From Planctomycetales bacterium (GTDB lineage Bacteria > 4484-113 > JAFGCY01), in assembly GCA_022646745.1 (NCBI GenBank), contig CP060262.1, forward strand, positions 1,680,001 through 1,712,000: DNA of 32,000 nucleotides, in the 5' to 3' direction. Below are positions 8,019-32,000 of the stretch, piece by piece. The notes beneath the pieces were generated by a model. It worked only from the letters and a program-made list of their open reading frames with translations, made no database searches and was not told the DNA's origin. Position 1 is the first letter of the stretch. The number at the start of each line of letters is the position of its first letter. A program made the position numbers and the translations under genes.

Positions 8019-8020
8019 CT

Positions 8021-8306
8021 GTCAGTGGTCGGTGGTCAGTGGTCAAAAGGCAGAAGGCAATAGGCAGGAGGCAGGAACAGAAGCAGAAACAGAAGCAGAA
8101 GCAGAAGCAGAATGAGAAGCAGTTGCAGCAGAGAATAGGGGCATCAGGGTGTGAAAGGTTGCCAAGCAACCCAGACCTTACACAAGCTGCTTCTCATTCT
8201 ATTTCTCATTCTCATTCTCATTCTCCTTCTCATACTCATTCTGCTTCTCATTCACATTCTGCTTCTCATACTCATTCTGTTTCTGGCAACTGTTTACTGT
8301 TTACTG
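8021..8306. repeat. Intergenic imperfect palindrome built from 6-7 nt tandem repeats, between convergent genes
   Basis: The left arm is purine-rich: (TCAGTGG)n, (GCAGAAG)n, (CAGAAG)n, GAGAAT. The right arm carries the complements: (CTTCTC/ATTCTC)n, (CTGTTTA)n. 8109-8122 'agaatgagaagcag' is the exact reverse complement of 8187-8200 'ctgcttctcattct'. A small hairpin ggttgc-caa-gcaacc lies in the central loop at 8157-8171. Confidence 0.85.
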
Positions 8307-9929: not shown

Positions 9930-11529
9930 CGGCTTCCCCCTCCTGCACCAGCTGCTCGAGCTCGGCGATCACGGCTGAAGAGTCCCACTGCTGCAGCAGG
10001 CGGGTGCGCAGGATCCATGCATGCAGGGGCAGGGACAGCAGGAACAGCCAGAGCATGAAGGGCCCCATCCCGCTCAGGCTCAGGCCACTGCCCGGGCTGC
10101 TGTTGCCAAGGAAGTAGGACATCGGCACCAGCATAAGCAGCAGCGGCGGTGCCATGGTCACGAGCATGTCCAGCGCTTCCGCGATGATGCCCGGCCGCAG
10201 TGAGCTGCCTTCCTGCCGCAGGTACCAGTTGAGGTTCCAGATCAGTGACCAGCAGGCCTCCATCCCGGGCTGGCGATGCTGCTTCGCGATCGGTGGAAAG
10301 GACAGCACTCCATGCAGCCAGGCCGGGCAGGCATTGAGCATCTCCTGCATCGGCAGCGTGCCTTGCACCACCTGGTCCACCAGTCCGCGCTGCCGGATCT
10401 GTTCACGCCGTTGCGTGATGCGCTGCACCATGTGTGGCTCCAGCAGGCCAGGCATCAGCCGGGCCTGGACCAGCAGGGCGATGCCGACCGCCACGAAGCC
10501 GGACAGCATGCCGAACAGCGGCAGGTAGGCGCTGACTCCGAAGCTGAAGGCAAAGAACAGCATCATGTTGAAGCCCATGTAATGCCGCACGAGGAAGCCG
10601 CTGCGGTTGTCAGAAACCATGCTGCCGTAGTAGGACAGCAGTGCCACCGTGCGCCGGAAAACCTCCGTGCTGCGCTCAACCTGCACCTCGCGGGGAATCG
10701 CCGCCTCGGCTTCCTCGCCCTCCCGGCCACTCTCCAGGTGTTCGAGCACCGGCTCCAGGTAATCCCGCAGCACCGGCAGCAGGAATGCAAAGCGGTAACC
10801 CTGCCGCATCAGTTCCACCGGCAGGCCGATTGACAGGCAGGCCAGCGCCAGGCCTATCCCGTAGTAAAACGGCAGCCGGAAGACCATCGGCACGATGATG
10901 AGCATCATCAGGGGCCACTGGATCACATTGACAAACCAGATGTTCCTGGTCCGGCTGTCCTTGCCGTAGTCGGAGTACTCTGGCAGTTTCCCGGCGATGC
11001 GCCGCAGTTGTGCCAGCGGTCCAGCCTGCATGGCCGGGTCGTCAAATTCGTTGGCAACCAGCTTCTCCGCCAGGCCACTGCCTGCGAGGCCCTCCTTCAG
11101 CAGTTTCAGGAATGGCTGTGGGCTCAGCAGGCTGCCGCCGGGGTTGTACACCGCCGGCAGGCGCCCGGGATCCCGCGCATAGGCCAGTGACTGGTAGCGC
11201 GCAATCGCGGCCGACAGCAGCAGGTAGGCCAGCAGCAGCAGGGGAATGAACAGCGCCAGGCTCAAGGGAGGCTGGAAGGAGCGCATGCTGTACATCGGCA
11301 GCACGAGGATCAGGCCGAAATACAGCAGCCAGTTCGCACTTGCCAGTCCGTTGATCCAGAACACCCGTGGCCTGACATTGGTGCACTCCTTTTCAAGTGC
11401 CGCCATCGCTTTCCGGATCTCATTGATCCGCTGGGCTGGCGGTGCGCTTCCCTCTCTCGCGATTGGGCCAGCTGCGGCCTCGGCAGTGCCTGCACGATCT
11501 GGCAACAGATTTCCCTGTTCAGCTTCCAT
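9919..11529 (-). CDS. Polytopic (about 8 TM) membrane protein, unknown family, paralog 2 of 3
   Basis: 536 aa, starting 'MEAEQ'. Overlaps the upstream paralog by 11 nt (11519-11529). Conserved blocks 'IPREVQVERS', 'GLVDQVVQGTLPMQEMLNACPAWLH', 'EACWSLIWNLNWY' and tail 'QLVQEGEADGS'. Confidence 0.8.
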   Translation of the reverse strand: MEAEQGNLLPDRAGTAEAAAGPIAREGSAPPAQRINEIRKAMAALEKECTNVRPRVFWINGLASANWLLYFGLILVLPMYSMRSFQPPLSLALFIPLLLLAYLLLSAAIARYQSLAYARDPGRLPAVYNPGGSLLSPQPFLKLLKEGLAGSGLAEKLVANEFDDPAMQAGPLAQLRRIAGKLPEYSDYGKDSRTRNIWFVNVIQWPLMMLIIVPMVFRLPFYYGIGLALACLSIGLPVELMRQGYRFAFLLPVLRDYLEPVLEHLESGREGEEAEAAIPREVQVERSTEVFRRTVALLSYYGSMVSDNRSGFLVRHYMGFNMMLFFAFSFGVSAYLPLFGMLSGFVAVGIALLVQARLMPGLLEPHMVQRITQRREQIRQRGLVDQVVQGTLPMQEMLNACPAWLHGVLSFPPIAKQHRQPGMEACWSLIWNLNWYLRQEGSSLRPGIIAEALDMLVTMAPPLLLMLVPMSYFLGNSSPGSGLSLSGMGPFMLWLFLLSLPLHAWILRTRLLQQWDSSAVIAELEQLVQEGEADGS

Positions 11530-13156
11530 CGCCTTCCCCCTCCTGCACCAGCTGCTCCATGCAGCTCAGCACCGCCCAGGCACCGGCAAGGTGCCGGGCG
11601 GCCCCCAGCATACTGAGGTAGATGAGGCAGGTTGTCAGCAACAGGATTGCCAGATACCAGCCTATGAGCGTGATGTTGTCAGGCAACGGGTTCTCTCCGA
11701 CCAGGATGCCGACCAGGTAGACTGGCACACCGACCAGCACTAGTATCGCCGGCAGCAGGCCGAGTGGCAGCAGCCAGTTGCTGTGCCAGCGCGGCCGTAC
11801 CATTGGCACCCGCTCGCCGCAGAACCAGTCGGCATTCCACATCAGGAGCCAGGCCTGCTCATTGGCGGTGCCGCGCAGCTGCTTCGGCATCGTGGGCAGG
11901 TAGAGCATGCGCTGCAGGAAGGGCGGGCAGGACAGCTGCAGTTCGCGGATTGGCAACAGGCCCATTGCCATCTGGCTGACCAACCCGCGCCGGCGGATGC
12001 TGTGTTCCAGCTGCTCCATCCGCGCCAGGGCCTGCCGGCCGACCTGCCAGCTCAGCAGGCGCAGCAGCAGGAACAGCAGGATTGCTGAGACGCCATTGGT
12101 GAACACCTCGCCTGGTGTTGTCACTTCGAACATGTTCAGGACAGCCATCATGCCGCAGAAAACGATCGAGAACAGGAGCGGAGCCACCGTGCCGATTGGC
12201 ACGCTCCAGCCCAGTCCGCTGCCGCGCCGCGCCAGCTCCGCCGCCAGCTCGATCGTCATCCGCCCGAGCCGCCCGCTGCCCTGCTCGACCTGCACCGCCG
12301 GCGGGATTTCCGCATCTCGCGTGCGCTCGGCCTGCAGGCTGCCACTGGCGGCATAGTAGCGCAGGGCGGACTTCAGGTAGGGCGCTGCCAGCTTCAGCCC
12401 GACGATGTAACGGCTGGCTTCCGTGAAATGAAGGGCAGTCCCGATGCCTGCGAACAGCAGGGCCACCATCGGCAGCACCGGTTCGACATGCCTGAAAGTC
12501 AGGCTGATTGGCAGGAGCAGGAGGCCGATCACAGCAGAAGCCAGTGAGAGATTCATTGTGAAGCGCCTGCTGCTGCCTGGGCCCGGTTCGGCAAGCTTGA
12601 ACTGGTGCCCGAGCCTGACAAGCAACTCCTCAACTTTTTCCGGGTCGCGCATTGCGGCCGTTGCCAGCTGCTCGGCGATACCGCTGCTATTCAGGCAGCG
12701 CTCAAGTGCGGCCTGCGCCATGCTGTTATGTACCCGCAGGGGGGCAGGCAGCAGCGGATAGGGCAGGGCAAGCGTGTCACGGTAGTACAGCTTCTCCAGC
12801 CTGCGGTAGATCGCATAGGCAGCCGGCGGCAGTATGCTCAGCAGCAGGAGCAGCAGCCAGCCTGCCTGGGGATAGGGAAGCTGGAACGGGTCGGGTCCGA
12901 ATCCGATCACGAGGAATGCCACCAGCAGGCAGGCGCTGAGCGGCAGCAGGCCCGGCAACAGCCACAGGCAGCGGATCAGGGCCGGCTGGCCCTCGCGGAT
13001 GGCAAGCTCGAGTTCCTTCTCAACGAGCTCGCAGGCCTGCCGCACCTGCTGCGCGCGGTCCACAGGTTCAGGCGTGGAAGCTGCTGGATGCGCTGCCCTC
13101 TCGCCGCGCTCCCGCTGATGCTCCTGCCAGGCTGTCCCCTGCAGATCCTGCTGCAT
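11519..13156 (-). CDS. Polytopic (about 8 TM) membrane protein, unknown family, paralog 1 of 3
   Basis: The track ORF reaches 13219, but its first 21 codons ('MLLLLILILILLLF...') translate the intergenic tandem repeats. I therefore prefer the ATG at 13156 ('MQQDLQGT...'), giving 545 aa. Blocks 'EIPPAVQVEQGSG', 'GLVSQMAMGLLPIRELQLSCPPFLQ', 'EQAWLLMWNADWFCGE' and tail 'QLVQEGEGDGS'. Confidence 0.75.
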   Translation of the reverse strand: MQQDLQGTAWQEHQRERGERAAHPAASTPEPVDRAQQVRQACELVEKELELAIREGQPALIRCLWLLPGLLPLSACLLVAFLVIGFGPDPFQLPYPQAGWLLLLLLSILPPAAYAIYRRLEKLYYRDTLALPYPLLPAPLRVHNSMAQAALERCLNSSGIAEQLATAAMRDPEKVEELLVRLGHQFKLAEPGPGSSRRFTMNLSLASAVIGLLLLPISLTFRHVEPVLPMVALLFAGIGTALHFTEASRYIVGLKLAAPYLKSALRYYAASGSLQAERTRDAEIPPAVQVEQGSGRLGRMTIELAAELARRGSGLGWSVPIGTVAPLLFSIVFCGMMAVLNMFEVTTPGEVFTNGVSAILLFLLLRLLSWQVGRQALARMEQLEHSIRRRGLVSQMAMGLLPIRELQLSCPPFLQRMLYLPTMPKQLRGTANEQAWLLMWNADWFCGERVPMVRPRWHSNWLLPLGLLPAILVLVGVPVYLVGILVGENPLPDNITLIGWYLAILLLTTCLIYLSMLGAARHLAGAWAVLSCMEQLVQEGEGDGS

Positions 13157-13177
13157 AGGCGGATTGTACCTTGAAGC

Positions 13178-13460
13178 AAACAGAAGCAGAATCAGAATGA
13201 GAATCAGAAGCAGCAGCACTCAGGCTATAGCCTGCCGGCTCATGCCTTGAGTTTCACTCCCTTCCTGATCTGATCCTTCTCCTTCTGATCTGATCCTTTT
13301 CCTTCTGATTCTGATTCTGATTCTGCTCACTCTTCATTGCTGCCTGCCTGCCATTCCACGGGAATGGCCTCCTGTCAGGCCATGGGCCTGACCTCCACTG
13401 CATTCTGCTTCTGCCTTCTGCCTTCTGCCCACTGACCACTGACCACTGACTACTGTTTAC
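13178..13460. repeat. Intergenic imperfect palindrome of 6-7 nt tandem repeats, in a divergent promoter region
   Basis: 13186-13207 'gcagaatcagaatgagaatcag' matches the reverse complement of 13305-13326 'ctgattctgattctgattctgc' at 21 of 22 positions. 13395-13450 is the reverse complement of the ordered mosaic seen at 8021-8120: (TCAGTGG)3, then (GCAGAAG)n, then GCAGAATG. Internal palindromes are caggctatagcctg (13221-13234) and ccattcc-acg-ggaatgg (13351-13367). Confidence 0.85.
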
Positions 13461-13580: not shown

Positions 13581-16500
13581 ATGCGTAACCGTTTCCTGAC
13601 TGCCGCGCTGGCGTGCATCTGCACTGCTGCGCTCCATTCCAATGCCCGCGCCAACGAGTACACCGTCGATGCCGGGCTGCTGCGTTACCCCGATGTCAGC
13701 GCCGACAGCATCTGCTTCAGCTTCGGCAATGATGTCTGGACCGTGCCGATCAGCGGCGGCACCGCCTCCCGGCTGAGCAGCACCTCCGGCGAGGAGATCC
13801 TCGCGCGCTTCAGCCCGGACGGCTCGCACATCGCCTACAGCGCCAACTACGAGGGCAGCCGCGATGTGTACATCCTGCCGCGCGAGGGTGGCATCCCACA
13901 GCGCCTGACCTGGAACCCCGGGTCCTGCAACATGGTGGACTTCACCGCGGACGGCGACGTGATGTTCTACTCCGGTTACGAGAGCAAGCACAACGGCGGC
14001 GGGCGGATCTACCGGGTCAGCAGCCAGGGCGGCATCCCGACGGCGCTGCCGATGGAGTTCGCCGTCTACGGCACGCTGGACAAGGATGGCAAGACCTTCG
14101 CCTTCACGCCCTCCAGCCGTGAGACCCGCACCTGGAAGCGCTACCAGGGCGGTCTGGCGCAGGATATCTGGCTTTTGGACATCGAGAGCCTCGAAAGCGA
14201 GCAGATCACCGACTGGCCGGGCACCGACGCCCTGCCGATGATCGATGGCAACGATGTGTGGTACATGTCTGACCGGGGCCCGGCGCACCGCCTGAACATC
14301 TGGCGCTACGACCGTACGACGAAAGAGCATACCCAGCTCACCAAGTTCACCGACTACGACATCAAGTGGCCCAGCATGGGCCCCGCGCACATCGTGTTCG
14401 AGAACGGTGGCGACCTCTGGCTGTATGAAAAGGCATCCGGCAAGGCCTCCAAGGTGGCCGTCAGCCTGCCCGGCGACCGTCCGACGCTGATGACAACTGC
14501 GATGGATGTGACGGACCAGTTCGGCGACGTGATGGCCAGCCCCAACGGCAAGCGGCTCGTGGGTGAGGCCCGGGGCGATGTCTGGACCATCCCGGTGGAG
14601 GAGGGCATCAACCGCAACCTGACGATGACGGACGGCTTCGCCGAGCGCAACCCGCGCTGGAGCCCGGACGGGCAGTGGATCTGCTGGCTCGGTGACAACA
14701 CGGGCAACTACGAGATCTACATCGCGCAGTCCGACGGCAAGGGCGAGACCCGCCAGCTGACGAAGGGCAGCGAGACCTTCTACACACGGCCCGAGTGGTC
14801 GCCGGATTCGAAGAAGATCAGCTATGCGGACAGCACCGGCCGGATCCACATCTTCGACATTGACAAGGACGAGTCGCGTGAGATCGACCGCGACCCCTGG
14901 GCCTACTACCCCTACACCAGCGTGAACTGGAGCGCGGACAGCCGCTGGGTGACCTACGGCCGGCTGAACCGTGAGAACCAGAACAGCCAGGTGATGCTCT
15001 ACGACTTTGACAACGACAAGCTGCACAGCGTGACGGATCCGATGTTCGGCCATGTCCAGCCGGTGTTCGACCTTTCCGGCGACTACCTGTACTACATCTC
15101 GCGCCTGAACTTCAACCACCGCTTCGGCGACATGGACTCGACCTACATCTACACCGACAGCCAGGTGCTGTGCGTCGTGCCGCTGCGCAATGACGTGGAC
15201 TCCCCCTTCGCGCTTTCGAATGACGAGGAGGAGATCAAGGCTGAAGAGAAACAGGATGAGAATGAGAAGCAGGATGAGGAGAAGGCGGAAGGCGAGGACG
15301 GCGCTGGCGAGGGCAAGGAAGAGAAAGCCGACAGGAAGGATGGCAAGGACAAGAAAAAGGACAAGAAGAAGGGCATCGACATCGATATTGAGGGCTTCGA
15401 GTCCCGCGCGATCGAGATCCCGCTGCGTCCCGGCAGCTATGGCAACCTGCAGGCCGCCGAGGGCCGCATCTTCTACACCTTCGGCGGCTTCAACAGCGGC
15501 CGCGAGGCCTACACCTACGACCTGAAGGAGCAGAAGGAGGAGAAGCTCGGTGACGGCATCGGCGACTTCCAGCTGCTGCCCGGTGGCAAGCAGATGCTGA
15601 TCAGCGGACGCGGCAACCGCTATGCAATCGTCAAGGCCGGCCCGAATGCCCGCTTCGACAAGGCGGTCAGCGTTGCCAACCTCACCGCCGACATCAACCC
15701 GCGCCATGAGTGGAAGCAGCTGGTGACCGACGCCTGGCGCTTCTACCGAGACCTGTTCTATGCCCCGAACCTGCATGAGGTGGACTGGGACCTGGTCGGC
15801 AAGCGCTACATCGGGATGGTGGACCACGCCGTCAACCGCCAGGATGTGAGCTACATCATCGGCGAGATGATCGGCGAACTGAACACCGGACACACCTACT
15901 ACAGCGGCCCGGGCGAAGCGCAGCCGAACCGCAATGTCGGCCTGCTTGGCGCTGACTATGAGCTGGCAACGCAGGACGGCAGCAGCGCCTGGCGGATCAG
16001 CCACATCTTCCACGGCGCGGACTTCGACGTGGACAGCCGCGGCCCGCTTTCCGAGCCCGGACTGGATGTCGGCGAGGGTGACTTCCTGCTGGCCGTCAAT
16101 GGCGTGGCACTGTCAACGAAACTGCCGGTCTGGGCCGGCTTCCAGGGCATGGCCGGCCAGACGACCATCCTGACAATCTCAGACGACGCGGTGCTTGGCA
16201 ATGATGACGACCGCGAGCTGGTGGTGCGCCCCGTCGGCAACGAGCAGGGCATGCGCCGCTTCGACTGGATCGAGGCCAACCGCCAGAAGGTGCTGGAGGC
16301 GACCGACGGCAAGGTCGGCTACATCTACGTGCCCAACACCAGCGGCGACGGCGTGAACAACCTGATGCGCCAGCTGCAGGGCCAGTACCACCTTGACGGG
16401 CTCGTGATCGACGAGCGCTGGAACGGCGGCGGCTACATCCCGACCTACTTCATCGACATCCTCGGCAGGAAGACCTACAGTTACTGGGCGCGCCGCGACG

Positions 16501-16937
16501 GTGAGGACTGGAGCACGCCGGACCTCGCGCACAACGGACCGAAGGTGATGCTGATCAACGCCAAGAGCGGATCCGGCGGCGATGCCTTCCCGTACTACTT
16601 CCGCCAGGCCGGGCTCGGCCCGCTGGTCGGTACCCGCACCTGGGGCGGCCTGGTCGGCATCTCCGGCTCACCGCGCCTGATCGACGGCAGCCGCCCCTCG
16701 ATCCCGATCTTCGGCTTCTACGAGCTGGACGGCAGCTGGGGCATCGAGGGCCACGGCGTCGATCCGGATATTGAAGTGATTGACGACCCGGGCCTGCTGG
16801 CAAAGGGCCAGGACCCGCAGCTGGACGCGGCGATCACCGAGATCCGCCGCCTGATCTTCGAGCAGCCCTACCGCAAGCCGGGCACCCCGCCCTGGCCGGA
16901 CCGCAGCGGTGTGGGCGTGAAGGAAAGTGAGAAGTAG
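13581..16937 (+). CDS. Secreted tricorn protease homolog (beta-propellers + PDZ + S41 peptidase), paralog 1
   Basis: 1118 aa. GGGAGG lies 5 nt upstream of the ATG. Signal peptide 'MRNRFLTAALACICTAALHSNARA'. Tricorn-like N-terminus 'LRYPDVSADSICFSFGNDVWTVPISGG', repeated 'SPDG' propeller blades, His block 'GELNTGHTYY' and Ser block 'INAKSGSGGDAFPYYFR'. Confidence 0.9.
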   Translation: MRNRFLTAALACICTAALHSNARANEYTVDAGLLRYPDVSADSICFSFGNDVWTVPISGGTASRLSSTSGEEILARFSPDGSHIAYSANYEGSRDVYILPREGGIPQRLTWNPGSCNMVDFTADGDVMFYSGYESKHNGGGRIYRVSSQGGIPTALPMEFAVYGTLDKDGKTFAFTPSSRETRTWKRYQGGLAQDIWLLDIESLESEQITDWPGTDALPMIDGNDVWYMSDRGPAHRLNIWRYDRTTKEHTQLTKFTDYDIKWPSMGPAHIVFENGGDLWLYEKASGKASKVAVSLPGDRPTLMTTAMDVTDQFGDVMASPNGKRLVGEARGDVWTIPVEEGINRNLTMTDGFAERNPRWSPDGQWICWLGDNTGNYEIYIAQSDGKGETRQLTKGSETFYTRPEWSPDSKKISYADSTGRIHIFDIDKDESREIDRDPWAYYPYTSVNWSADSRWVTYGRLNRENQNSQVMLYDFDNDKLHSVTDPMFGHVQPVFDLSGDYLYYISRLNFNHRFGDMDSTYIYTDSQVLCVVPLRNDVDSPFALSNDEEEIKAEEKQDENEKQDEEKAEGEDGAGEGKEEKADRKDGKDKKKDKKKGIDIDIEGFESRAIEIPLRPGSYGNLQAAEGRIFYTFGGFNSGREAYTYDLKEQKEEKLGDGIGDFQLLPGGKQMLISGRGNRYAIVKAGPNARFDKAVSVANLTADINPRHEWKQLVTDAWRFYRDLFYAPNLHEVDWDLVGKRYIGMVDHAVNRQDVSYIIGEMIGELNTGHTYYSGPGEAQPNRNVGLLGADYELATQDGSSAWRISHIFHGADFDVDSRGPLSEPGLDVGEGDFLLAVNGVALSTKLPVWAGFQGMAGQTTILTISDDAVLGNDDDRELVVRPVGNEQGMRRFDWIEANRQKVLEATDGKVGYIYVPNTSGDGVNNLMRQLQGQYHLDGLVIDERWNGGGYIPTYFIDILGRKTYSYWARRDGEDWSTPDLAHNGPKVMLINAKSGSGGDAFPYYFRQAGLGPLVGTRTWGGLVGISGSPRLIDGSRPSIPIFGFYELDGSWGIEGHGVDPDIEVIDDPGLLAKGQDPQLDAAITEIRRLIFEQPYRKPGTPPWPDRSGVGVKESEK

Positions 16938-17051
16938 GCGATAAACTTGCGTCGCCTGAAACATAATCATATGGATATGGTGTCTGGACTTCCCATGGGG
17001 GAAGCCCCGCTGTATTCATCCACATATCCTGGCGCGAGCCATGGAGGAATA

Positions 17052-20000
17052 ATGCTTTACCGTAACCTTATCGCCACGGTGCTTCTGCTGTGCTGCGCCC
17101 AAGCAGTACCGGCGGCCGCTGCCGACTTTGACATCGACGCCGCGATGCTGCGTTTCCCTGATGTCTCGGACACGCAGATCGCGTTTGCTTATAACAACGA
17201 CCTGTGGATCGCCCCCAAGGGTGGTGGCACGGCCGTGCCGCTCAGCAGCCCGGCCGGCACCGAGATCCTGCCGCATTTCAGCCCGGACGGGAAGTCCATT
17301 GCCTTCACTGCCAACTACGAAGGCAACCAGGACGTCTACATCATGCCCGTCGAAGGCGGCATCCCGAAGCGCCTGACCTTCGGCCCGATGCAGGACATGG
17401 TGGTCGGCTTCGACTCCGAGGGCAATGTGCTGTTCTCCAACGCCAGCGAAATGAAGAACTATGGCGGCGGGAAGATCTACAGCATCAGCCCCAATGGCGG
17501 GATCCCCGAGGCCCTGCCGCTGGAGTACGGCGCCTTCTGCAGCGTGGAGGGTGACACCATCGCCTTCACGCCGTCCACCCGCGAGAACCGCACCTGGAAG
17601 CGTTACCAGGGTGGCCTGGCGCAGGACATCTGGCTGCTCAACAAGAAGACACTCGCGAGCGAGCGCATCACCGATTTCCCCGGCACCGATGCCCAGCCGA
17701 TGCTGCACGGCGACAAGGTCTACTTCGTGTCCGATGCCGGTCCGGAGAACCGCCTGAACCTGTGGGTCTATGACCGCACTACGAAGAAGCGCAGCCAGCT
17801 CACTGAATTCAAGGACTTCGACTGCAAGTTCCCCGGCATGGGTCCCTCCGAGATCGTGCTCGAGAACGGTGGCGACCTCTACCTCTACGGCATCGCCAGC
17901 GGCGAGCTGAAGTCCGTCAAGATCCGCATCCCGGGTGACCGCCCGACACTCATGACCCAGAGCGAGGATGTCAGCCCGCTGATCTTCAGTGCCAGCCCCT
18001 CCCCGAACGGAGTGCGCCTCGCGCTTGAGGCCCGCGGCGAGATCTGGACGGTGCCCGTCGAGGACGGCATCAAGCGCAACCTGACGATGTCCCCGGACAG
18101 CAATGAGCGCTACCCGGTCTGGAGCCCTGATGGCAAGTGGATCGCCTACTTCAGCGATGCCGACGGTGACTATGAACTGTATGTGACCCAGAGTGACGGC
18201 CGCGGCGAGACGCGCCAGCTCACGACGGATGACGAGACCTGGTTCACCAACCCGGTCTGGAGCCCGGATTCCAGCAAGATCGCCTTTGCCGACCGCACAG
18301 GATCGATCTTCATTCACAGCATCGAGCAGGAGACCACATTCCTGATCGACGAGGACCCCTGGGCGGCCTACCCCTACACGAATGTGGTCTGGTCGGCGGA
18401 TTCCAGCTGGCTGGCCTACTCGCGGATGGACAATGAGAATGGCAACGGTGTGATCGTGCTGTACGACGTCGTCAACGCCTGGGCGCACCAGGTGACGAGC
18501 TCGATGTTCTCCAGCACCAACCCGACTTTTGACCGCAATGGCAACTACCTGTACTTCCTCACCAACCGCAGCTTCCAGCACAGCTTCGGCGACCTGGACG
18601 AGACTTACGTCTTCCCGGACAGCACGCTGATGGCCTGTGTGCCGCTGCGCAATGACGTGAAGGACCCCTGGGCCGGCGGCAATGACGATGAGGAGATCAA
18701 GGCCGAGGAGAAGGCTGACGAATCCAAGGACGAGGCCAAGGCCGAAGGCGAGGGCGATGAGGCCGCCGACGGGGATAAGCCCGCCGATGAGGAGAAGCCA
18801 GCCGCGGAGGAAGAGAAGCCCGGCCTGAAGATCGACATCGAGGGCTTCGAGGGCCGTGCGATCCTGATGCCGCTGCCCGGTGGCAACTACTGGAACCTGG
18901 AGGCCGGCGAGGGCAAGGTGTTCTACGTCGATGGCAACAACCCGGCCGGCCCGACGATCATGATGTTCGGCGCCGGTGAGGACCAGCCCGCCCCCGTAAT
19001 CGGCGGTGCCTTCGGCTTCGGCCTGCTGCCCGACGGCAAGCGCATGCTTGTCAGCGTCGGTGGCCGGATGGGCATCATCAACGCCGCTCCGAACCAGAAG
19101 CTGGACAAGCCGGTAGACACCTCCGGCCTGGTGATGGAGTACGAGCCGCGTGGGCACTGGCGCTCACTGGTGCGTGATGCGCACCGGATGTACAAGTACC
19201 TGTTCTACGACCCGAACCTGCACAAGGTGGACTGGGACAAGGTCGGCAAGCGCTACATCGGCATGGTTGACGACGCCGTCAACCGCCAGGACATCACCTG
19301 GATCATCTCCGAGATGATCTCCGAGCTGAACGTGGGCCACTCCTACTACGGCGGCCCCTCCGACCCGGCCCCCAGCCGCAGCGTCGGCCTGCTTGGTGCT
19401 GACTACGAATACGTGAATGATGGCAACGGCCAGTCCGGCATCCGCATCGCCCACATCTTCGGCGGCGCGGACTGGGACCTTGATGCCCGCTCGCCGCTCT
19501 GGCTGCCTGGTGAGGACGTGGCAGAGGGCGACTTCATCATCGCCGTCAACAACGTGCCGGTCGACCCGGGCATGCCGCTCGATGCGGCGATGCAGGGCCT
19601 CGCCGGCCAGACCACCGTGCTGACCATCAGTGACGATGCGACGGTTGGCGACGATGACCGCGAGGTGGTCGTCACCCCGATCGGCTGGGACTATGAGCTG
19701 CGCCGCCGCGACTGGATCGAGGCCAACCGCCGCTACGTCGAGGAGAAGACCGGCGGCAAGGTCGGCTACATCTACGTGCCGGACACCGCGCAGGACGGTG
19801 TCAACAACCTGATGCGCCAGTTCGTCGGCCAGTTCACCCGCCAGGGCCTGATCGTCGACGAGCGCTGGAACGGCGGTGGCTACATCCCGACCTACTTCAT
19901 TGACATCCTCTCACGCAAGTCCCGCAGCTACTGGGCGCGCCGCGATGGCAACACCTGGGCGACCCCGACGCTGGCCCACAACGGCCCGAAGGTGATGCTC

Positions 20001-20384
20001 GCCAACAGCCACTCCGGCTCCGGCGGCGACTGCTTCCCCTACTACTGGCGCCAGGAGGGCCTCGGCCCGATCATCGGCACCCGCACCTGGGGCGGCCTGA
20101 TCGGCATCAGCGGCCAGCCGAACCTCGTGGACGGCACGCGCCCGACGATCCCGATCTTCGCCTTCTTCGAGCTGGACGGCACCTGGGGCATCGAGGGCTA
20201 CGGCGTCGACCCGGACATCGAGGTGGTTGACGACCCGGGCCTGCTGGCGAAAGGCCAGGACCCGCAGCTGGACCGCGCGATCGCCGAGATCATGAAGGCG
20301 GTGGAGGAGCATCCCTACAGCATCCCGCCGGTGCCGGCCTATCCGGACCGCAGCGGCAAGGGCACCAAGCCCGCAGATCGCTAG
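17052..20384 (+). CDS. Secreted tricorn protease homolog (beta-propellers + PDZ + S41 peptidase), paralog 2
   Basis: The track ORF starts at 16947. The ATG at 17052 follows GGAGGA (17043-17048) and gives the signal peptide 'MLYRNLIATVLLLCCAQAVPAAAA'. Collinear with paralog 1: 'LRFPDVSDTQIAFAYNNDLWIAPKGGG', 'SELNVGHSYY', 'ANSHSGSGGDCFPYYWR'. Confidence 0.9.
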   Translation: MLYRNLIATVLLLCCAQAVPAAAADFDIDAAMLRFPDVSDTQIAFAYNNDLWIAPKGGGTAVPLSSPAGTEILPHFSPDGKSIAFTANYEGNQDVYIMPVEGGIPKRLTFGPMQDMVVGFDSEGNVLFSNASEMKNYGGGKIYSISPNGGIPEALPLEYGAFCSVEGDTIAFTPSTRENRTWKRYQGGLAQDIWLLNKKTLASERITDFPGTDAQPMLHGDKVYFVSDAGPENRLNLWVYDRTTKKRSQLTEFKDFDCKFPGMGPSEIVLENGGDLYLYGIASGELKSVKIRIPGDRPTLMTQSEDVSPLIFSASPSPNGVRLALEARGEIWTVPVEDGIKRNLTMSPDSNERYPVWSPDGKWIAYFSDADGDYELYVTQSDGRGETRQLTTDDETWFTNPVWSPDSSKIAFADRTGSIFIHSIEQETTFLIDEDPWAAYPYTNVVWSADSSWLAYSRMDNENGNGVIVLYDVVNAWAHQVTSSMFSSTNPTFDRNGNYLYFLTNRSFQHSFGDLDETYVFPDSTLMACVPLRNDVKDPWAGGNDDEEIKAEEKADESKDEAKAEGEGDEAADGDKPADEEKPAAEEEKPGLKIDIEGFEGRAILMPLPGGNYWNLEAGEGKVFYVDGNNPAGPTIMMFGAGEDQPAPVIGGAFGFGLLPDGKRMLVSVGGRMGIINAAPNQKLDKPVDTSGLVMEYEPRGHWRSLVRDAHRMYKYLFYDPNLHKVDWDKVGKRYIGMVDDAVNRQDITWIISEMISELNVGHSYYGGPSDPAPSRSVGLLGADYEYVNDGNGQSGIRIAHIFGGADWDLDARSPLWLPGEDVAEGDFIIAVNNVPVDPGMPLDAAMQGLAGQTTVLTISDDATVGDDDREVVVTPIGWDYELRRRDWIEANRRYVEEKTGGKVGYIYVPDTAQDGVNNLMRQFVGQFTRQGLIVDERWNGGGYIPTYFIDILSRKSRSYWARRDGNTWATPTLAHNGPKVMLANSHSGSGGDCFPYYWRQEGLGPIIGTRTWGGLIGISGQPNLVDGTRPTIPIFAFFELDGTWGIEGYGVDPDIEVVDDPGLLAKGQDPQLDRAIAEIMKAVEEHPYSIPPVPAYPDRSGKGTKPADR

Positions 20385-26145: not shown

Positions 26146-26952
26146 ATGGGAAAGACCCCACTGCAGCTATACAAGGAGCTGCCCTCTACTGAACAGATAT
26201 CTGCCGGCGACAGGTCCTGGCACGTCAAGTTGCTGCGCCGGATGCTGGCCATGGCCGGCGCTGCCCCGATCCACTGGATGAACCCCGCCGTCGATGTAGA
26301 CTGGCATTTCGATGACAACCTGCTGACCCTCGTGCACGCATTCCAGAATGCCAACGGATTGCCAGTGTCTGATTCAGTTGATGATGCCTGCTGGAAGAAG
26401 CTTGCCGAGGCCTGCGAAACGGCGCCGGTTGGCAACGGTGATCCTCTGCCGGCTGCCGGCCCTGCCAGGGACCGTGTTGCCAGGCGGATAGTGGAAATCG
26501 CCCAGGCGGCTGAGGCCCGCGGAATACGGGAACATGGCAGCAACTCTGGTGCCACCGTGCGCATGCTTTTGCGCCATGCCGGCCTGGATGGCGCCTTTGC
26601 CTGGTGCATGGCCTTTGTCTGGGCGGTGGTGGACCTCGCATACTTCCTCGAGCAGCAGATGCCCCCGGTGCTTGAGCCGGTGCAGAAGCGCTCCTGCAGC
26701 AACCTGGTGGCATGGGCCCGGCTCCACCATTCGCTTATAGAAAACCCGCTGCACGCGCAGCCCGGCGACCTCTGGGTGCAACGCGGCGGCGAAACCGGCT
26801 TCAAGCATGTCGGCGTGATCACCGGTGTCAGTGGCAACAGGGCGAGCACGGTCGAGGGCAACACAAATCACCGTGGCAGCGACGAGGGCGAGGGCGTATA
26901 TGCGCATGCGCGGCCACTGGATGACAGCCAGTGCGTGGTGGTGAGGCTGTAG
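26146..26952 (+). CDS. Peptidoglycan-binding domain + CHAP/NlpC-P60-like cysteine amidase/peptidase (endolysin-like cell-wall hydrolase)
   Basis: 268 aa with no signal peptide. PG_binding_1-like text: 'VKLLRRMLAMAG...FDDNLLTLVHAFQNANGLPVSDSVDDACWKKL'. The catalytic-type triad context 'GAFAWCMAFVWAV', 'GFKHVGVITG', 'STVEGNTN' resembles CHAP/TIGR02594-type hydrolases. Confidence 0.75.
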   Translation: MGKTPLQLYKELPSTEQISAGDRSWHVKLLRRMLAMAGAAPIHWMNPAVDVDWHFDDNLLTLVHAFQNANGLPVSDSVDDACWKKLAEACETAPVGNGDPLPAAGPARDRVARRIVEIAQAAEARGIREHGSNSGATVRMLLRHAGLDGAFAWCMAFVWAVVDLAYFLEQQMPPVLEPVQKRSCSNLVAWARLHHSLIENPLHAQPGDLWVQRGGETGFKHVGVITGVSGNRASTVEGNTNHRGSDEGEGVYAHARPLDDSQCVVVRL

Positions 26953-26954: not shown

Positions 26955-27791
26955 ATGGCAATGCAGTTCCCCATCGCGCTCTACACCACGATGCTCGACA
27001 CCGAGCATTCCCGGCTCGGCCACCTCTGGCACCGTGCGAAGAACAGCCAGCCGCCGGACTGGTACGGCCAGCCCTGGCCTGAGCTGGACAGGGTGTTCGT
27101 GGAGCAGAGCGTGGTGCACCGCGTCGGCACTCATGAGTTCAGCATCGCCAGTGAGAAGCACAAGCGGAAGTCGGCGGGGATCCTCTCAAGTGTACTGCGC
27201 AGCTTCGGCGTGCTGGACTTCCAGATGGAGCGGCTGCGCAGCCGCAGCTTTGTTGCCAAAGTGAAGTTGCACGACTACGTACGGCCGACGCTGTCACTGG
27301 CGGCCCTCTCACGCCTGCTGGGCTACACGGTGCCGCCGACATACGCGGGCGGGCACTGGTTCGCCTGCCATGCCCAGCACCAGGCCACCAGCGGCTCGCT
27401 GGAACTGGCCTACGACCGCTCGGATGGCTACGACCTGGCCGCCGAACTGGAGGCCAGAGGAAACTCTGGCAACACTGCCCTGCCTGGTGCACGAGGGAAT
27501 AATGGAGGTGCGATCACGCAAGGCGTGAATGTCGCACAAGCGGAGCGCGTAGCGGACTCCGGCGATGAGCCGGAGGCAGCTGCGCAGTACTCCCCATCCC
27601 CCATCCCACATCCCGCGTCCCCCGCGGGTAGCCTGCACCTGGAGGACCAGTCCTCCGGCCTGCAGCTCTTCTCCTTCCGCGCCTCCAGGCCACTTGTCTT
27701 CGGCGTCAGCCTGCAGCACATCTGGGAGAAGGACGGCAAGCTCGCATCATTCGGCAACAAGCACGAGGACCTGGAATATGCGGGGAGCTGA
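26955..27791 (+). CDS. Hypothetical protein, translationally coupled to the hydrolase gene
   Basis: The ATG at 26955 lies 2 nt after the upstream TAG (26950-26952), with GAGG at 26943-26946. 278 aa, no TM segment, no signal peptide and no recognised motif. It contains an in-frame copy of the CATCCC-type repeat (27592-27628), so the extent of the real gene is somewhat uncertain. Confidence 0.55.
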   Translation: MAMQFPIALYTTMLDTEHSRLGHLWHRAKNSQPPDWYGQPWPELDRVFVEQSVVHRVGTHEFSIASEKHKRKSAGILSSVLRSFGVLDFQMERLRSRSFVAKVKLHDYVRPTLSLAALSRLLGYTVPPTYAGGHWFACHAQHQATSGSLELAYDRSDGYDLAAELEARGNSGNTALPGARGNNGGAITQGVNVAQAERVADSGDEPEAAAQYSPSPIPHPASPAGSLHLEDQSSGLQLFSFRASRPLVFGVSLQHIWEKDGKLASFGNKHEDLEYAGS

Positions 27792-27797
27792 GTAAGT

Positions 27798-27818
27798 AGC
27801 CCGGCTACAAGCCGGGCT
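27798..27818 (+). terminator. GC-rich hairpin after the stop codon (no T-tract)
   Basis: agcccggc-tacaa-gccgggct forms a perfect 8-bp stem starting 7 nt after the TGA at 27789-27791. It is followed by heptamer repeats rather than a U-tract, so intrinsic-terminator function is uncertain. Confidence 0.45.
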
Positions 27819-27819
27819 G

Positions 27820-27848
27820 TCAGTAGTCAGTGGTCAGTGGTCAGTGGC
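27820..27848. repeat. (TCAGTGG)-type heptamer tandem repeat, third occurrence of this motif class
   Basis: The tract 'tcagtagtcagtggtcagtggtcagtggc' uses the same heptamer as 8021-8044 and, as the complement, 13428-13450. Confidence 0.8.
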
Positions 27849-28073
27849 CAGTTGTCAGATCATGTAGCAGCAGCGCTCCCGCCGCTGATTTGAAAAGTGA
27901 CATCGATGCATCGCCCGTCTTCAACGCCCCACTCGCACTTCATTACCTCCCCGCAGCAGCGTCCCTCCTTCGTTGGACTGAGAACCGCACTACCGCTTCC
28001 CACGCGGGTAAGCACTGAATACACCACATTGGCATCTTGATGAAATATTGATAAATCAATGATGATATCTTGA

Positions 28074-28102
28074 TTGACAACCAGTCGCCGGCCTTGTATA
28101 AG
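28074..28102 (+). promoter_or_regulatory. Near-consensus sigma70-type promoter at the left edge of the AT-rich cassette
   Basis: TTGACA (28074-28079), a 17-nt spacer, then TATAAG (28097-28102). TTGAT/ATCAA repeats lie immediately upstream. It would give a leader of about 230 nt before the ATG at 28336. Confidence 0.55.
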
Positions 28103-28335
28103 TAATGCGAATGCAGTTCTAGTTAGAACAATGACATGTTCTCAGGAGAAGGAAAGCATTCACAAAACGTCGAAACAGATTTGGCTGGTATAGTGTCAAG
28201 GCTTCGTAAGTTGATTTCAAATTTACTTGTCGTACTCTCTGAGTTTCATTGCATGATACTAGGTAATGTTGATACTCAATGTTCTTAGATACTCTAAAGA
28301 ACATAGTGATCGCAAGTCATTCTCTAGGAGAAAAC

Positions 28336-30213
28336 ATGTTAGATTACAAATCATTGCTTGAAAAGGCAAGAACAATTTTTCAGATTAATCCAAACAGTGA
28401 TTTGTTTCCGGGAGAAAAATGGTTGTATAATTTTGCATTTGTTATATGTATTTTTACAGGCATTGTAGATATTTATAATTACAGGTATCGCATTTCCATT
28501 GAACTGATCATTTTTTGTATGGTTGGAATATGTTTACTTGTAATAGTAGGGGCCCATGTTATGACATTTAAGACCGATGATGGAGAAGAGTATCAAGCAC
28601 CAGGTGGTTTTACAGTTTATAGAAATTTAAGAGATAGAAATCCTAAGTTAAGGTCAATTACTGATTTTGCTAAATTACCTGAGGTTCATTACAATATTTT
28701 AAAACTCTTTCCAGTGCAGCAATTGATTTTAATGAGATTGATGTCACTTTGTGGTTTGTCAATTATCAGTCTAGTCACTGGTGTTTATATCAACGCACTG
28801 TTTATTTCGGAGGATTCAATAGTATATAAGCATATACTTTCTTTAAAAAAGCAAACACACATTCTTGATTATTTAAAGAGTAAGGAAATTGCTGCTGATT
28901 TACAACAATGCATTGTTCAATTAGAAGAGTTAGAAGATGAAGAATCCGACAAGAGTGTGAGTGAGGATCAAAATATTGGCGAGTCAAACATTGTGAAATC
29001 GTGCATGAAACATTTTACTGGCATTGTTGATAATCAGTATGAATATCAACTAATTGAATATGCAACTATTGATAGATTCTTAAAATTATTCATGAACACA
29101 CGTTTTGCTATTTTGATTCGTGATTATGAAACAAATTCTACAGGATCAGATAATCATACTGAAATATTGAAGCTACAAGATGCATGGGATATTTATTGCA
29201 AGGATTGTGTGTTTTGTATTGAAAGACTCAATGAAATCAGAAAGGGAAGTACAAGTACAGAAGACGAATACGGTAGAAGTGTTTACTTAATGTCTGAAAT
29301 AAGTATTGCCATTCTAGAAATTTGGAGTGAAAACACTAAGAAACTGTGTACTTTTCAGTTGAAAGATGATAACAGCAAGAAAGTCATATTTTCCAAGAGT
29401 CTTTATCAAGTTCTTAATGAACGAATTGATCCAGATCAATTGAATCGACAACAATACATTGATTGGGTAAATAGACAGTCAATGATTCTTACTTATATGG
29501 CTTATATGGATAATGACATTGGGATAAGTCCAACGGATCCGAGTAAACTGAAAGAAGCATATGAACTCAGTCATAATGCATTTCTCTCAAATTCCCTGAG
29601 TTTTAAGTGTGTAGTTGGACATGCGAGAAACACTCAACTTCTATTTCGATATGCATATAATGACAGCTTGGATTTAAAAGAATTGTCGTCTATATATGAT
29701 AACATGGTGATCAATCGTTCACAATGGGGCATAGTTCCTGGTAGTCTTTATGAGGAACATTACAATAGTAATTTACTTAGTGTTGGCTTGGTATATATTA
29801 TTCGAGAATTAGAAAAAGTGGACTTTGATGTGAGTAGACTAACTAATAAGCAAAAAAACAAATTGGTAGATGTTTCGAATACAATTGCGTCTTGTAATAA
29901 AAGATTAAGAATGCTGAACATTCAAGATGAGTTGTCGGAATGGGAATGGGATTTTATGGCATCACATTTAGAAGTATGTATAGGCAACTATCTGCTCTCA
30001 GAAGATCCCAAGGCTGTTACTGCGAATAGGAATAGTGTAACCTATCAGTTTAACTCATTAATGTTAAAAACAGAAAATTTAGAACAGATTGATGCAATAC
30101 GACTAAATGTGTTGGAAGTTTATCTGATGAATGATGATTTGTTTGAGGAGTTGACAAAATCTTTGCAATTGAGAAAATCTGAACTGAATTCAAAGGAGAC
30201 TTCAGTAGAATAA
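28336..30213 (+). CDS. Membrane-anchored orphan protein (3-4 N-terminal TM helices + about 430-aa helical soluble domain), unknown family, horizontally acquired
   Basis: The track ORF starts at 28279. The ATG at 28336 is preferred because AGGAG (28326-28330) sits 5 nt upstream, and 28279-28304 forms an 8-bp inverted repeat. G+C is about 27-30% in sampled lines. TM segments: 'WLYNFAFVICIFTGIVDIY', 'IELIIFCMVGICLLVIVGAHVM', 'LILMRLMSLCGLSIISLVTGVYINALFI'. I recognise no catalytic motif. Confidence 0.8.
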   Translation: MLDYKSLLEKARTIFQINPNSDLFPGEKWLYNFAFVICIFTGIVDIYNYRYRISIELIIFCMVGICLLVIVGAHVMTFKTDDGEEYQAPGGFTVYRNLRDRNPKLRSITDFAKLPEVHYNILKLFPVQQLILMRLMSLCGLSIISLVTGVYINALFISEDSIVYKHILSLKKQTHILDYLKSKEIAADLQQCIVQLEELEDEESDKSVSEDQNIGESNIVKSCMKHFTGIVDNQYEYQLIEYATIDRFLKLFMNTRFAILIRDYETNSTGSDNHTEILKLQDAWDIYCKDCVFCIERLNEIRKGSTSTEDEYGRSVYLMSEISIAILEIWSENTKKLCTFQLKDDNSKKVIFSKSLYQVLNERIDPDQLNRQQYIDWVNRQSMILTYMAYMDNDIGISPTDPSKLKEAYELSHNAFLSNSLSFKCVVGHARNTQLLFRYAYNDSLDLKELSSIYDNMVINRSQWGIVPGSLYEEHYNSNLLSVGLVYIIRELEKVDFDVSRLTNKQKNKLVDVSNTIASCNKRLRMLNIQDELSEWEWDFMASHLEVCIGNYLLSEDPKAVTANRNSVTYQFNSLMLKTENLEQIDAIRLNVLEVYLMNDDLFEELTKSLQLRKSELNSKETSVE

Positions 30214-30368
30214 AAGCCAATGGATTGTTTTATCTGGAATGTTACCTGAACAATTAATAACGTAAAAGTGACATAAAGAAATTAGGTAATAATTGTACGG
30301 TGATGGTAATCACCTGACACTTGCCCCTCCGGCGGGGTTTTCAGTCTAGGCTGTATTCCGCTTCTTTG

Positions 30369-30577
30369 TCACCCCCTTTTTCGTCTCCTTTGGAACCCTT
30401 CCGTGAACACCGCGTAGGGTGTCCTGCCGTCCTTGCCTCGGCCCTGTTGAGGGCGCCTGGTGTTGTAGTGCACCAGATAGGCATTCAGTCCTCCTGCATT
30501 TCCGCCAAGCTTTCGTAGAACTTCTGGCATACATCTTCCGGAAGTGCTTGGCCATCAAAGAACGATGCAGTCGCTAT
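30369..30577 (-). pseudogene. C-terminal remnant of an IS481-type (rve/DDE integrase-core) transposase, 5'-truncated and frameshifted
   Basis: The minus-strand translation gives '...FFDGQALPEDVCQKFYESLAEMQED' and then an in-frame TGA (30485-30487). The homology continues in another frame from 30488 as 'LNAYLVHYNTRRPQQGRGKDGRTPYAVFTEGF...' to the stop at 30369-30371. The 'YN..RPHQ-like...GRTP' tail is the classic end of rve-domain transposases. This is a GC-rich patch inside AT-rich DNA. A possible element terminus (TG...) lies near 30315. Confidence 0.7.
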
Positions 30578-30633
30578 GGAATTGATCATTAGAAGCAAAA
30601 GACAAGGGCGTATGTCAATGTATAATTTTGAGA

Positions 30634-31131
30634 ATGAGTCAAAGCGAGGAAGAGCTGCGTGACGAATATTGCAAAGCAATTGGCATGCTCGTCGTTGCAT
30701 TCAATGATTTGGAAGTGGATTTGAAATGGCAGAGCACCTTCTTGATTCCAGGCGTTGAGCTGAGTGAGGACATAGAGGAGATTAGAATCTTCTCTCGCTT
30801 GATGATGGGGCACTTGTCTTTTTCCCAAGTTCTGGAGATGTATAAGACCTTACTCAAGAGGGTGTTCGACCAGACTGAACATAGAGAAATCGCAGCACAC
30901 GTTAAGAGCCTAGACGATATTCGTGAGCGTCGAAACTTCTTCGTACATGCGAATTTCGCTGTCAGAAGGATTACAACTGGCCCTCCCGTACTATTGAAGT
31001 ATCAGAGATTCAGGGAGGAGTTTCGCATGGAAGATGTTGACGTAGCTGCGATCTATGACCTGATAGCTGAAATACAGGATGCTGCGAGTGCATGCCAGAC
31101 CTTTTGCGGCAAAGCCATAATGTTGAAATGA
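30634..31131 (+). CDS. Small HEPN-like protein (putative RNase; R-x4-H motif)
   Basis: 165 aa counted from the ATG at 30634 (the track uses TTG at 30628). All-helical character. 'LDDIRERRNFFVHANF' contains RN-x3-H (R at 30931-30933, H at 30946-30948), the HEPN signature. G+C is intermediate, about 45-50% in sampled lines. Confidence 0.55.
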   Translation: MSQSEEELRDEYCKAIGMLVVAFNDLEVDLKWQSTFLIPGVELSEDIEEIRIFSRLMMGHLSFSQVLEMYKTLLKRVFDQTEHREIAAHVKSLDDIRERRNFFVHANFAVRRITTGPPVLLKYQRFREEFRMEDVDVAAIYDLIAEIQDAASACQTFCGKAIMLK

Positions 31132-31132
31132 G

Positions 31133-32000
31133 CTACCCCAGACCCTTCTCCATCTGTTCCCTGACCACCCCTGCGATCTGGCGGGACTGCGCCATCGCCG
31201 CATCGGCTTCCTCGCGGACCTTCGCGCGGTATTCGCTCTTCTTCGGCATCGAGTTGGTATTGATCAGCACGTTGTAGTATGCGCCTTCCGCGCAGGCCAG
31301 CGCCATCGCGGCTCCAGTGCCTGCATCCGACAGTGCGTTCTGGTTGCCCTTTTCGGCGACTTCGCGGCAGAGTTCCAGGGTTTCCACGCAGCGCTTCAGC
31401 GTTGCCAGCGGTACTTCGGTCACGCCGACGGTCGCCTGCTTGATCGCGGCTGAGCGCGCCTTCTGCTCCTCGTCAGTGTTCTTCGGCATGCCGAAGGTGT
31501 CCATCAGGATGTTGAATGCCGCGGTGTCATCGTCAATCGCGCGCAGGTATTCATCCTTCAGCTGCTGCGCCCGCGTTGCGATCCGGTTCATGTCCTTCTT
31601 CACCGGCGCATAGCCCGGCTTGCCGACCGTCAGGTTCGGCACCATCGCTGCAAGACCCGCCGCCAATGCGCCGGCCAGGGCGGCCACCGAGCCACCACCG
31701 GGGGCCGGGCTGACAGAGGCCAGCTCCTCCACGAAGTCCGTCACGCTCATCTTTGCCAGCGGCCGCACACTGTCGTCAATCGCATACTCCACGATGCGTT
31801 TCTGCGGATCGAACTCGCCCAGCTCAGTCAGGCCCAGCGTCTGGATGGCAACGCGCACCAGCTCGCGCTCACTCACCCCGGTGCAGACCTTCTTCTGCTT
31901 CCTGAGGAAATGCCGCCCGGCATCCGTCAGCGCGGACAGCGGGATCAGCCCGACCAGCTCACTGCCGGTCACCCTGAGGCCGTACTCCCGCGCCAGCTCG
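31133..32000 (-). CDS. ftcD: Glutamate formimidoyltransferase / formimidoyltetrahydrofolate cyclodeaminase (C-terminal part; gene continues beyond the window)
   Basis: The cyclodeaminase-domain text 'SVTDFVEELASVSPAPGGGSVAALAGALAAGLAAMV' is preceded by the transferase-domain end 'GSELVGLIPLSAL'. The reading frame stays open upstream of the track start ('ELAREYGLRV...') to the window edge. The stop (cta) is at 31133-31135. Confidence 0.85.
   Translation of the reverse strand, partial: ELAREYGLRVTGSELVGLIPLSALTDAGRHFLRKQKKVCTGVSERELVRVAIQTLGLTELGEFDPQKRIVEYAIDDSVRPLAKMSVTDFVEELASVSPAPGGGSVAALAGALAAGLAAMVPNLTVGKPGYAPVKKDMNRIATRAQQLKDEYLRAIDDDTAAFNILMDTFGMPKNTDEEQKARSAAIKQATVGVTEVPLATLKRCVETLELCREVAEKGNQNALSDAGTGAAMALACAEGAYYNVLINTNSMPKKSEYRAKVREEADAAMAQSRQIAGVVREQMEKGLG

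Follow-up and report, generated by a model that had tools for sequence, protein, structure and literature searches.

Single-gene, membrane-anchored proteins of abortive infection or exclusion are familiar from RexB-type membrane effectors and from the Abi orphans of lactococci, which are AT-rich and carry membrane helices at the N terminus. At the level of whole loci, an account of core defense hotspots in Pseudomonas aeruginosa describes variable sites between conserved core genes as a rich source of defense systems (PMC10250203), and a second study presents many defense genes as single genes that computational screens have missed (PMC9519451). Here we describe a gene for a 625-amino-acid (aa) membrane-anchored orphan protein, encoded in a 32,000-nucleotide (nt) stretch of a genome labeled Planctomycetales bacterium (assembly GCA_022646745.1, contig CP060262.1, positions 1,680,001–1,712,000 of the forward strand). 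We refer to the whole stretch as the window, and positions below are window positions unless a relative is named. The gene sits at a hypervariable integration hotspot, newly defined here, in an uncultured lineage related to candidate phylum UBP7. An earlier note made from the letters of the window alone had presented it as a recently acquired, probably regulated orphan, perhaps a membrane-disrupting effector or a sensor.

The gene is real, intact, and protein coding, and it is of foreign low-GC origin. The mechanical open reading frame (ORF) runs from 28279 to 30213 on the plus strand (644 aa). We preferred the ATG at 28336, the start proposed before, over the ATG at 28279 because only the former is preceded, at a distance of 5 nt, by an AGGAG ribosome-binding site (RBS; 28326–28330); the resulting 625-aa product was also called by gene callers on three independent metagenome contigs. 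Chance origin of the frame is excluded, because at the stop rate of 0.083 per codon expected from the local base composition, 625 open codons have a probability of ∼2e-24; the other five frames stay open for at most 70 codons. The guanine-plus-cytosine (GC) content of the gene is 0.323, and the values for the three codon positions (GC1, GC2, and GC3) fall from 0.406 through 0.289 to 0.275, a gradient that we counted as evidence for a real gene. GC3 in the nine flanking core genes is 0.75–0.91 and the host genome has a GC content of ∼65%, so the extreme AT bias that had been remarked on is real.

Relatives were recovered using the upstream 278-aa core gene, and six lineages, the window included, were compared at the junction. 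The insertion point is the gap between this core gene and a convergent gene for formiminotransferase-cyclodeaminase (FTCD). In the closest relative (L006/L007; handle protein 89% identical, flanking DNA 91%–95% identical on both sides), the site is empty, with the 286-aa gene and the convergent FTCD gene separated by a single nucleotide, and it is also empty in the more distant L008/L009 (57%). The remaining four lineages are filled, each with an unrelated low-GC cargo. At the same nucleotide position, a metagenome-assembled genome labeled UBP7 (L004) carries PtuA (PADLOC; E = 2.8e-39), an HNH-type PtuB (E = 6.6e-13), and a patatin (E = 1.1e-51). The cargo of L005 is a PKD-domain lipoprotein with a 312-aa membrane protein, and that of L014 a 170-aa signal-peptide protein; neither gave a defense match. 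None of the cargo proteins of these three relatives showed similarity to the 625-aa protein or to a second orphan of 165 aa encoded in the window insert, and two further scans of metagenome contigs for states of the hotspot returned only the distant locus already known. Presence and absence between conserved flanks, together with a GC3 of 0.275 against at least 0.75 in the core genes, mark the gene as cargo of a hotspot or island. As for an association with defense islands, Septu and patatin were found in L004 only, and the window holds an HEPN-like neighbor whose matches lie below threshold.

Recent acquisition of the 625-aa gene, as the earlier note had claimed, is strongly supported, because the site is empty in the closest relative despite flanks at 91%–95% identity and because the codon composition of the gene has not drifted toward that of the host. 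Most simply, the empty state is ancestral; acquisition in the window lineage post-dates its split from L006. Four contigs from independent assemblies encode the exact 625-aa protein, each time with an identical set of neighbors, and since the DNA of the locus is 99.96%–100% identical among them, an assembly chimera is excluded.

In a blastn alignment of the window with L006, homology ends at 27792 and restarts at 31129, which delimits the insert (Table 1). The empty-site sequence in L006 reads ...GGGAGTTGAG/CTACCCC.... The TGAG at both ends of the insert could reflect either microhomology or duplication of a 4-bp target; apart from it, we found no att-type direct repeats and no flanking tRNA gene. 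The insert is a mosaic. At its left end lies a host-type repeat module, a homolog of which occupies the same place in L005; a block of 28%–38% GC bearing the 625-aa gene extends from ∼28020 to 30310; and to its right, beyond a terminator-like stem-loop, lie a stretch of IS481-family transposase sequence with host-like GC and the 165-aa gene. The transposase stretch is a remnant and not an element: its match to profile NF033577 (E = 1e-7) covers positions 245–284 of 284, tblastn matches were to ISAs19-type transposases, no catalytic core is left, and no element ends were identified. The three compositional classes and the decayed insertion sequence (IS) point to several events rather than one, and they speak against the two orphan genes forming an obligate operon. 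All cargo genes share one orientation, which prompted the idea of an integron cassette; no integrase was seen among the scanned ORFs and no attC-like site by eye, neither having been formally tested.

Set beside the P. aeruginosa hotspots (PMC10250203), the junction shares conserved core flanks, empty and filled states among close relatives, unrelated and compositionally foreign cargo in each lineage, Septu with patatin in one relative, and mobile-element debris in the insert. It departs from them in its target, a gap of 1–4 nt that separates convergent stop codons, rather than a tRNA or an intergenic region of larger size, and in the integrase, of which the informal look at the ORFs gave no sign. 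It also differs in its setting, since the six genomes examined belong to an uncultured UBP7-related lineage and half of the filled sites are without a recognized defense gene.

By sequence search, the 625-aa protein has no detectable family. The best full-length Pfam match had an E-value of 0.19, and when the protein was searched in three pieces at E-values up to 10, Pfam gave only a compositional match to DUF2206 over the membrane helices, which scored 16.7 bits where the cutoff is 35.6. NCBIfam gave no match, PHROGs nothing better than an E-value of at least 0.19, PADLOC-DB v2 (5027 defense-protein models, E up to 1) zero families, and phmmer against the PDB nothing with either the full length or the C-terminal domain. 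A word-indexed search of 5.8 billion clusters matched the protein to itself only, and phmmer, run exhaustively against 1.84 billion representatives, matched only a 100-aa fragment of the same protein at 100% identity. Likewise, tblastn against phages and plasmids and scans of IMG/VR and GTDB genomes returned no match. The protein is thus the orphan it was said to be, and a confident match to a family with a housekeeping role, looked for thoroughly, did not appear. The structural comparison that the earlier note had recommended was also run. Single-sequence AlphaFold2 yielded an unusable model (mean predicted local distance difference test score [pLDDT] of 45, predicted template modeling score of 0.32), and Foldseek against the PDB returned only generic helical repeats, that is, designed or TPR-like helical solenoids with template modeling (TM) scores of 0.1–0.2, which on such a model we discarded as meaningless.

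Kyte–Doolittle hydrophobicity in a 19-aa window identified three hydrophobic segments, at aa 29–47 (1.65), 53–71 (2.95), and 130–157 (2.04), and the AlphaFold secondary-structure string puts helices at the same three positions. Three or four membrane helices in about the first 190 aa had been proposed; the N-terminal helices are present, and they number three and lie within the first 157 aa. Topology was read from the Lys and Arg counts of the segments flanking each helix. It suggests an N terminus outside, an Arg-rich turn (NYRYR, aa 48–52) inside, and a loop with an acidic start (aa 72–129) outside, and under the positive-inside rule the NYRYR turn and a Lys-rich segment after helix 3 place the C terminus and the 468-aa domain inside, probably in the cytoplasm. 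This domain is predicted to be helical throughout and has a net charge of ∼−24. Leu, Ser, Glu, Asn, Ile, and Asp are prominent in its composition; Lys, which the earlier description had included, amounts to only 6.2%.

Both local features singled out beforehand were located: the acidic run LEELEDEESDKSVSEDQ spans aa 196–212 (28921–28971) and the CxxCxxC segment YCKDCVFCIERL spans aa 287–298 (29194–29229). The Cys cluster consists of C288, C291, and C294 only and sits inside a predicted long helix. A regular-expression scan of all 625 aa found no Walker A, Rx4-6H, GxSxG, HExxH, or HxxH motif, in agreement with the stated lack of P-loop, nuclease, protease, and HEPN signatures. For P-loop NTPases of the STAND, KAP, or ABC type, there was neither an [AG]xxxxGK[ST] motif nor an AAA or ABC match in Pfam; for an HEPN ribonuclease, R.{4,6}H was absent throughout; and for TPR or HEAT repeats, Pfam gave no match to the protein whole or in pieces. 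Internal repeats or a coiled coil found no support either, as block-to-block alignment reached a maximum of 33, within the shuffled null (mean 22.7, maximum 45).

The second orphan gene of the insert encodes a candidate minimal HEPN ribonuclease of 165 aa. The protein is predicted to be all-alpha, its RNFFVH motif (canonical RNxxxH) lies in a predicted helix, and the region around the motif gave sub-threshold matches to CARF_HEPN (PADLOC; E = 0.014) and DUF7809 (E = 0.04). The size, the predicted all-alpha character, and the position of the motif helix, in the second half of the protein, resemble those of the minimal HEPN ribonucleases of toxin–antitoxin and Abi systems. Unlike those, the protein reached its hidden Markov models at sub-threshold E-values (0.014–0.04), has no homologs that we could find, has no partner nucleotidyltransferase gene, and gave an unusable single-sequence AlphaFold2 model (pLDDT 39). 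A promoter-like AAGACA-16-TATAAT ends 8 nt before its ATG, and a transcript from this TATAAT site would be nearly leaderless. We consider it more likely that the HEPN-like gene came as a cargo of its own than that it is tied to the 625-aa protein as an obligate partner.

Two described systems come closest to the 625-aa protein itself. With the Abi and RexB-type proteins it would share an N-terminal anchor joined to a large non-enzymatic cytoplasmic part and an AT-rich, mobile, orphan-like character, a likeness of architecture and context only; it differs from them in having no sequence similarity and zero PADLOC matches. With the Septu system of L004 (the PtuA ATPase and the PtuB HNH nuclease) and its patatin it shares the chromosomal position and the low GC of the cargo, and it differs in lacking an ATPase, HNH, or patatin motif as well as any similarity to the L004 proteins. 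In L004 (11173–14673 of that contig), the low-GC Septu pair stands directly before the patatin-like phospholipase gene, and the FTCD gene and the 3′ end of the phospholipase gene overlap. Unusually for this ATPase, PtuA of L004 contains hydrophobic stretches.

We tentatively read the 625-aa gene as an accessory conflict gene whose product is most likely a single-protein, membrane-anchored factor of the abortive-infection type directed against phages or mobile elements. This reading draws on context only, and we put its probability at roughly 35%. The cytoplasmic helical domain would recognize a cue derived from the invader, and the three-helix membrane module would then oligomerize or otherwise perturb the membrane. 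Counted in its favor were Septu and patatin at the same site in L004, the candidate toxin-type ribonuclease gene with its RNxxxH motif next door, and the IS481 remnant inside the insert. A number of observations weigh against it. The sequence, motif, and structure analyses gave no link of the protein to any mechanism, the structural side being limited to a model of pLDDT 45 and generic helical matches at TM-scores of 0.1–0.2. Of the three other filled sites, only one has recognized defense genes and two have envelope proteins with no assigned role; the hotspot is therefore not specific to defense. With no homologs and four copies free of variation, purifying selection is not demonstrable; the gene may have arrived so recently that decay has not yet set in, and its expression in a host of 65% GC could be silenced. 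The earlier suggestion of a membrane-disrupting effector or a sensor fares similarly: it stays plausible, with circumstantial support from the hotspot, where one relative has Septu and patatin and the window an HEPN-like neighbor, and with the envelope proteins of two relatives on the other side.

Those two relatives, L005 and L014, whose secreted or membrane proteins bear no defense signature, would also fit an accessory protein of the envelope or membrane that serves some purpose other than defense (at the surface, in niche adaptation, or associated with transport), the hotspot collecting any foreign gene that is tolerated; the empty PADLOC result for the 625-aa protein agrees with this. We regard such a role as possible if doubtful, given that most of the protein is predicted to lie in the cytoplasm as an acidic, helical domain and not at the cell surface, and given the Septu and patatin of L004 and the IS remnant and HEPN-like gene of the window. 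The undrifted composition can be turned to another account, in which a gene functional in its low-GC donor arrived very recently together with mobile-element debris and is now a silent or neutral passenger, intact for lack of time to decay. Its codon usage does not fit that of the host, a relative at 91%–95% identity lacks the insert, a decayed IS481 fragment adjoins, and the four known copies do not vary within the insert. Yet decay has had time to act there, because the neighboring transposase is truncated and frameshifted, whereas the ORF, the RBS, and the promoter-like site of the 625-aa gene are intact; the insert is moreover unchanged in several independent samples, and we think a functionless passenger unlikely.

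The two orphans might also form one system, in which a membrane sensor or anchor controls a ribonuclease toxin or the reverse, as in toxin–antitoxin and abortive-infection pairs. They share a strand, an insert, and their orphan status, and the RNFFVH helix of the all-alpha 165-aa protein, with its faint CARF_HEPN and DUF7809 matches, would supply the toxin. A pairing is nevertheless distinctly improbable in our view: the genes are 420 nt apart with the opposite-strand IS481 remnant between them, their GC3 values are 0.275 and 0.536, the 165-aa gene has a promoter-like site of its own, and its HEPN assignment is itself below significance. Least credible of all is a highly diverged member of a housekeeping or otherwise characterized family that was missed through compositional drift. 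Single-sequence methods are indeed less powerful where a protein is AT-biased and of low complexity, and we found no positive evidence for such a membership; Pfam (with the whole protein and with its three pieces at E-values up to 10), NCBIfam, PHROGs, PADLOC, the PDB, and the 1.84-billion phmmer search were all empty, and the gene is dispensable, being absent from the closest relative.

Taken further, the reading as an anti-phage factor would make the 625-aa protein the first, and to date the single known, representative of a new membrane-anchored family, with a three-helix module, an acidic helical sensor domain, and possibly a cofactor site at the Cys cluster, caught at a previously undescribed convergent-stop-gap hotspot in an uncultured candidate phylum, where it might act with an orphan minimal HEPN ribonuclease. 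We offer this fuller picture as a speculation that is on balance unlikely to hold in all its parts. Were the protein functional, it would represent a family without a relative among ∼15 billion predicted proteins, dark matter beyond the reach of defense catalogs built on homology; were it not, the locus would be a clean, datable case of very recent gene acquisition across phyla, with its composition undrifted. The hotspot also provides a way to prioritize orphans in uncultured high-GC lineages, namely low-GC cargo between convergent core genes, with empty sites confirming acquisition. Orphan cargo genes in islands are common; this one is a real, well-delimited candidate for experimental screening, and at 1.9 kb and AT-rich it is small enough for synthesis and a direct test in Escherichia coli.

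Upstream of the 625-aa gene, we read a promoter-like site directly from the sequence (Table 1). The conserved T at the end of the −10 box is missing from its TATAAG, and the site was therefore passed over by a consensus scan. TTGACA-17-TATAAG is a good but imperfect match to a sigma-70-type consensus that may not be that of this phylum, and the AT-rich stretch, in which matches of this kind are common, contained 16 promoter-like sites against 9.9 ± 3.3 expected, which is no clear enrichment. A single imperfect match in AT-rich DNA does not sustain the dedicated strong promoter that the earlier note had seen. The leader implied by the site contains a 50-aa upstream ORF (28136–28288), matched no Rfam family, and had a folding energy that was not significant against shuffles (z = −1.9). 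On the latter two results, we dropped a riboswitch or attenuator as a candidate, and the long leader loses its standing as a mark of regulation; that the gene is regulated is unsupported rather than refuted. Part of the leader (28132–28150, ACATGTTCTCAGGAGAAGG) could pair with the RBS and start region (28318–28343), the 50-aa upstream ORF lying between the two arms, in a pairing that is not statistically significant.

Table 1. Positions of the insert, its boundaries, and its features in the window
Feature	Position	Strand	Details or basis
Left TGAG, including the stop codon of the 278-aa gene	27789–27792	+	Junction reading
Whole mosaic insert, 3.34 kb, absent in the closest relative	27793–31132		blastn against L006
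Left-end repeat module of host type, GC-rich (58%–60%)	27793–28020	+	Strong hairpin 27797–27818, (GGTCAGT)n 27819–27851, short palindromic unit
Putative promoter-like site, TTGACA (28074–28079), 17-nt spacer, TATAAG (28097–28102)	28074–28102	+	Read directly
Putative 5′ leader, ∼230 nt	28103–28335	+	Implied by the promoter-like site
625-aa orphan gene, stop codon included	28336–30213	+	AGGAG RBS at 28326–28330
Hydrophobic helix 1, aa 29–47	28420–28476	+	Kyte–Doolittle and AlphaFold secondary structure
Hydrophobic helix 2, aa 53–71	28492–28548	+	Kyte–Doolittle and AlphaFold secondary structure
58-aa loop, aa 72–129, predicted beta-hairpin	28549–28722	+	Probable external face, positive-inside rule
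Hydrophobic helix 3, aa 130–157	28723–28806	+	Kyte–Doolittle and AlphaFold secondary structure
468-aa acidic all-alpha domain, aa 158–625	28807–30210	+	Probable cytoplasmic location
Terminator-like stem-loop followed by a T run	30320–30336	+	At the AT-rich/GC-rich boundary
Frameshifted C-terminal remnant of an IS481-family transposase, host-like GC	30370–30560	−	Translation; NF033577 profile
165-aa orphan gene, 46% GC	30634–31131	+	RNFFVH at aa 100–105 (30931–30948)
Right TGAG, stop codon of the 165-aa gene	31129–31132	+	Junction reading; abuts the FTCD stop (31133–31135, minus strand)

The core gene used to recover the relatives is the second of a pair on the plus strand (26146–26952 and 26955–27791), the first encoding a CHAP/PG_binding_1 protein and the second the 278-aa protein. 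In the latter, the N-terminal 165 aa are highly conserved, as are the last 45 aa to a lesser degree of emphasis, and between them lies a low-complexity linker that varies in length and in L005 has grown to three 25-aa repeats. A weak match of the 278-aa protein to bGSDM (E = 0.005) was judged probably spurious, given an architecture in which a disordered linker, variable in length, joins the conserved domain at the N terminus to a short module at the C terminus. In a distant relative (L010), the core gene pair is followed by a gene for a 569-aa PGAP1-like lipase.

The (GGTCAGT)n heptamers of the repeat module recur as lineage-specific microsatellites, with 10 matches in the intergenic regions of the window against 0.17 expected. 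They lie at 8021–8046, 13425–13450 (minus strand), and 27819–27851 in the window, and at 11162–11201 in L005, 9954–9990 in L008, and 146–204 in L014. In the window and in L005, a small palindromic unit comes after the heptamers (AGATCAKGTAGCAGCRGC...CCGCTGA); it is similar to the repetitive extragenic palindromic type.

Elsewhere in the window, the whole intergenic region at 8019–8306 is a long imperfect palindrome, in which purine-rich repeats on the left, (CAGAAG)n and (GGCAGRA)n, stand opposite (CTTCTC/ATTCTC)n repeats on the right; its RNA folds at −97.9 kcal/mol (z = −3.9 against shuffles), and a similar repeat-rich region lies at 13240–13450. Between these two regions, three consecutive, slightly overlapping ORFs of 536–566 aa on the minus strand (8307–9929, 9919–11529, and 11519–13219), with host GC and no Pfam match, may form an operon. 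Two tandem paralogous tricorn-type proteases with beta-propeller, PDZ, and S41 domains are encoded on the plus strand at 13581–16937 and 16947–20384.

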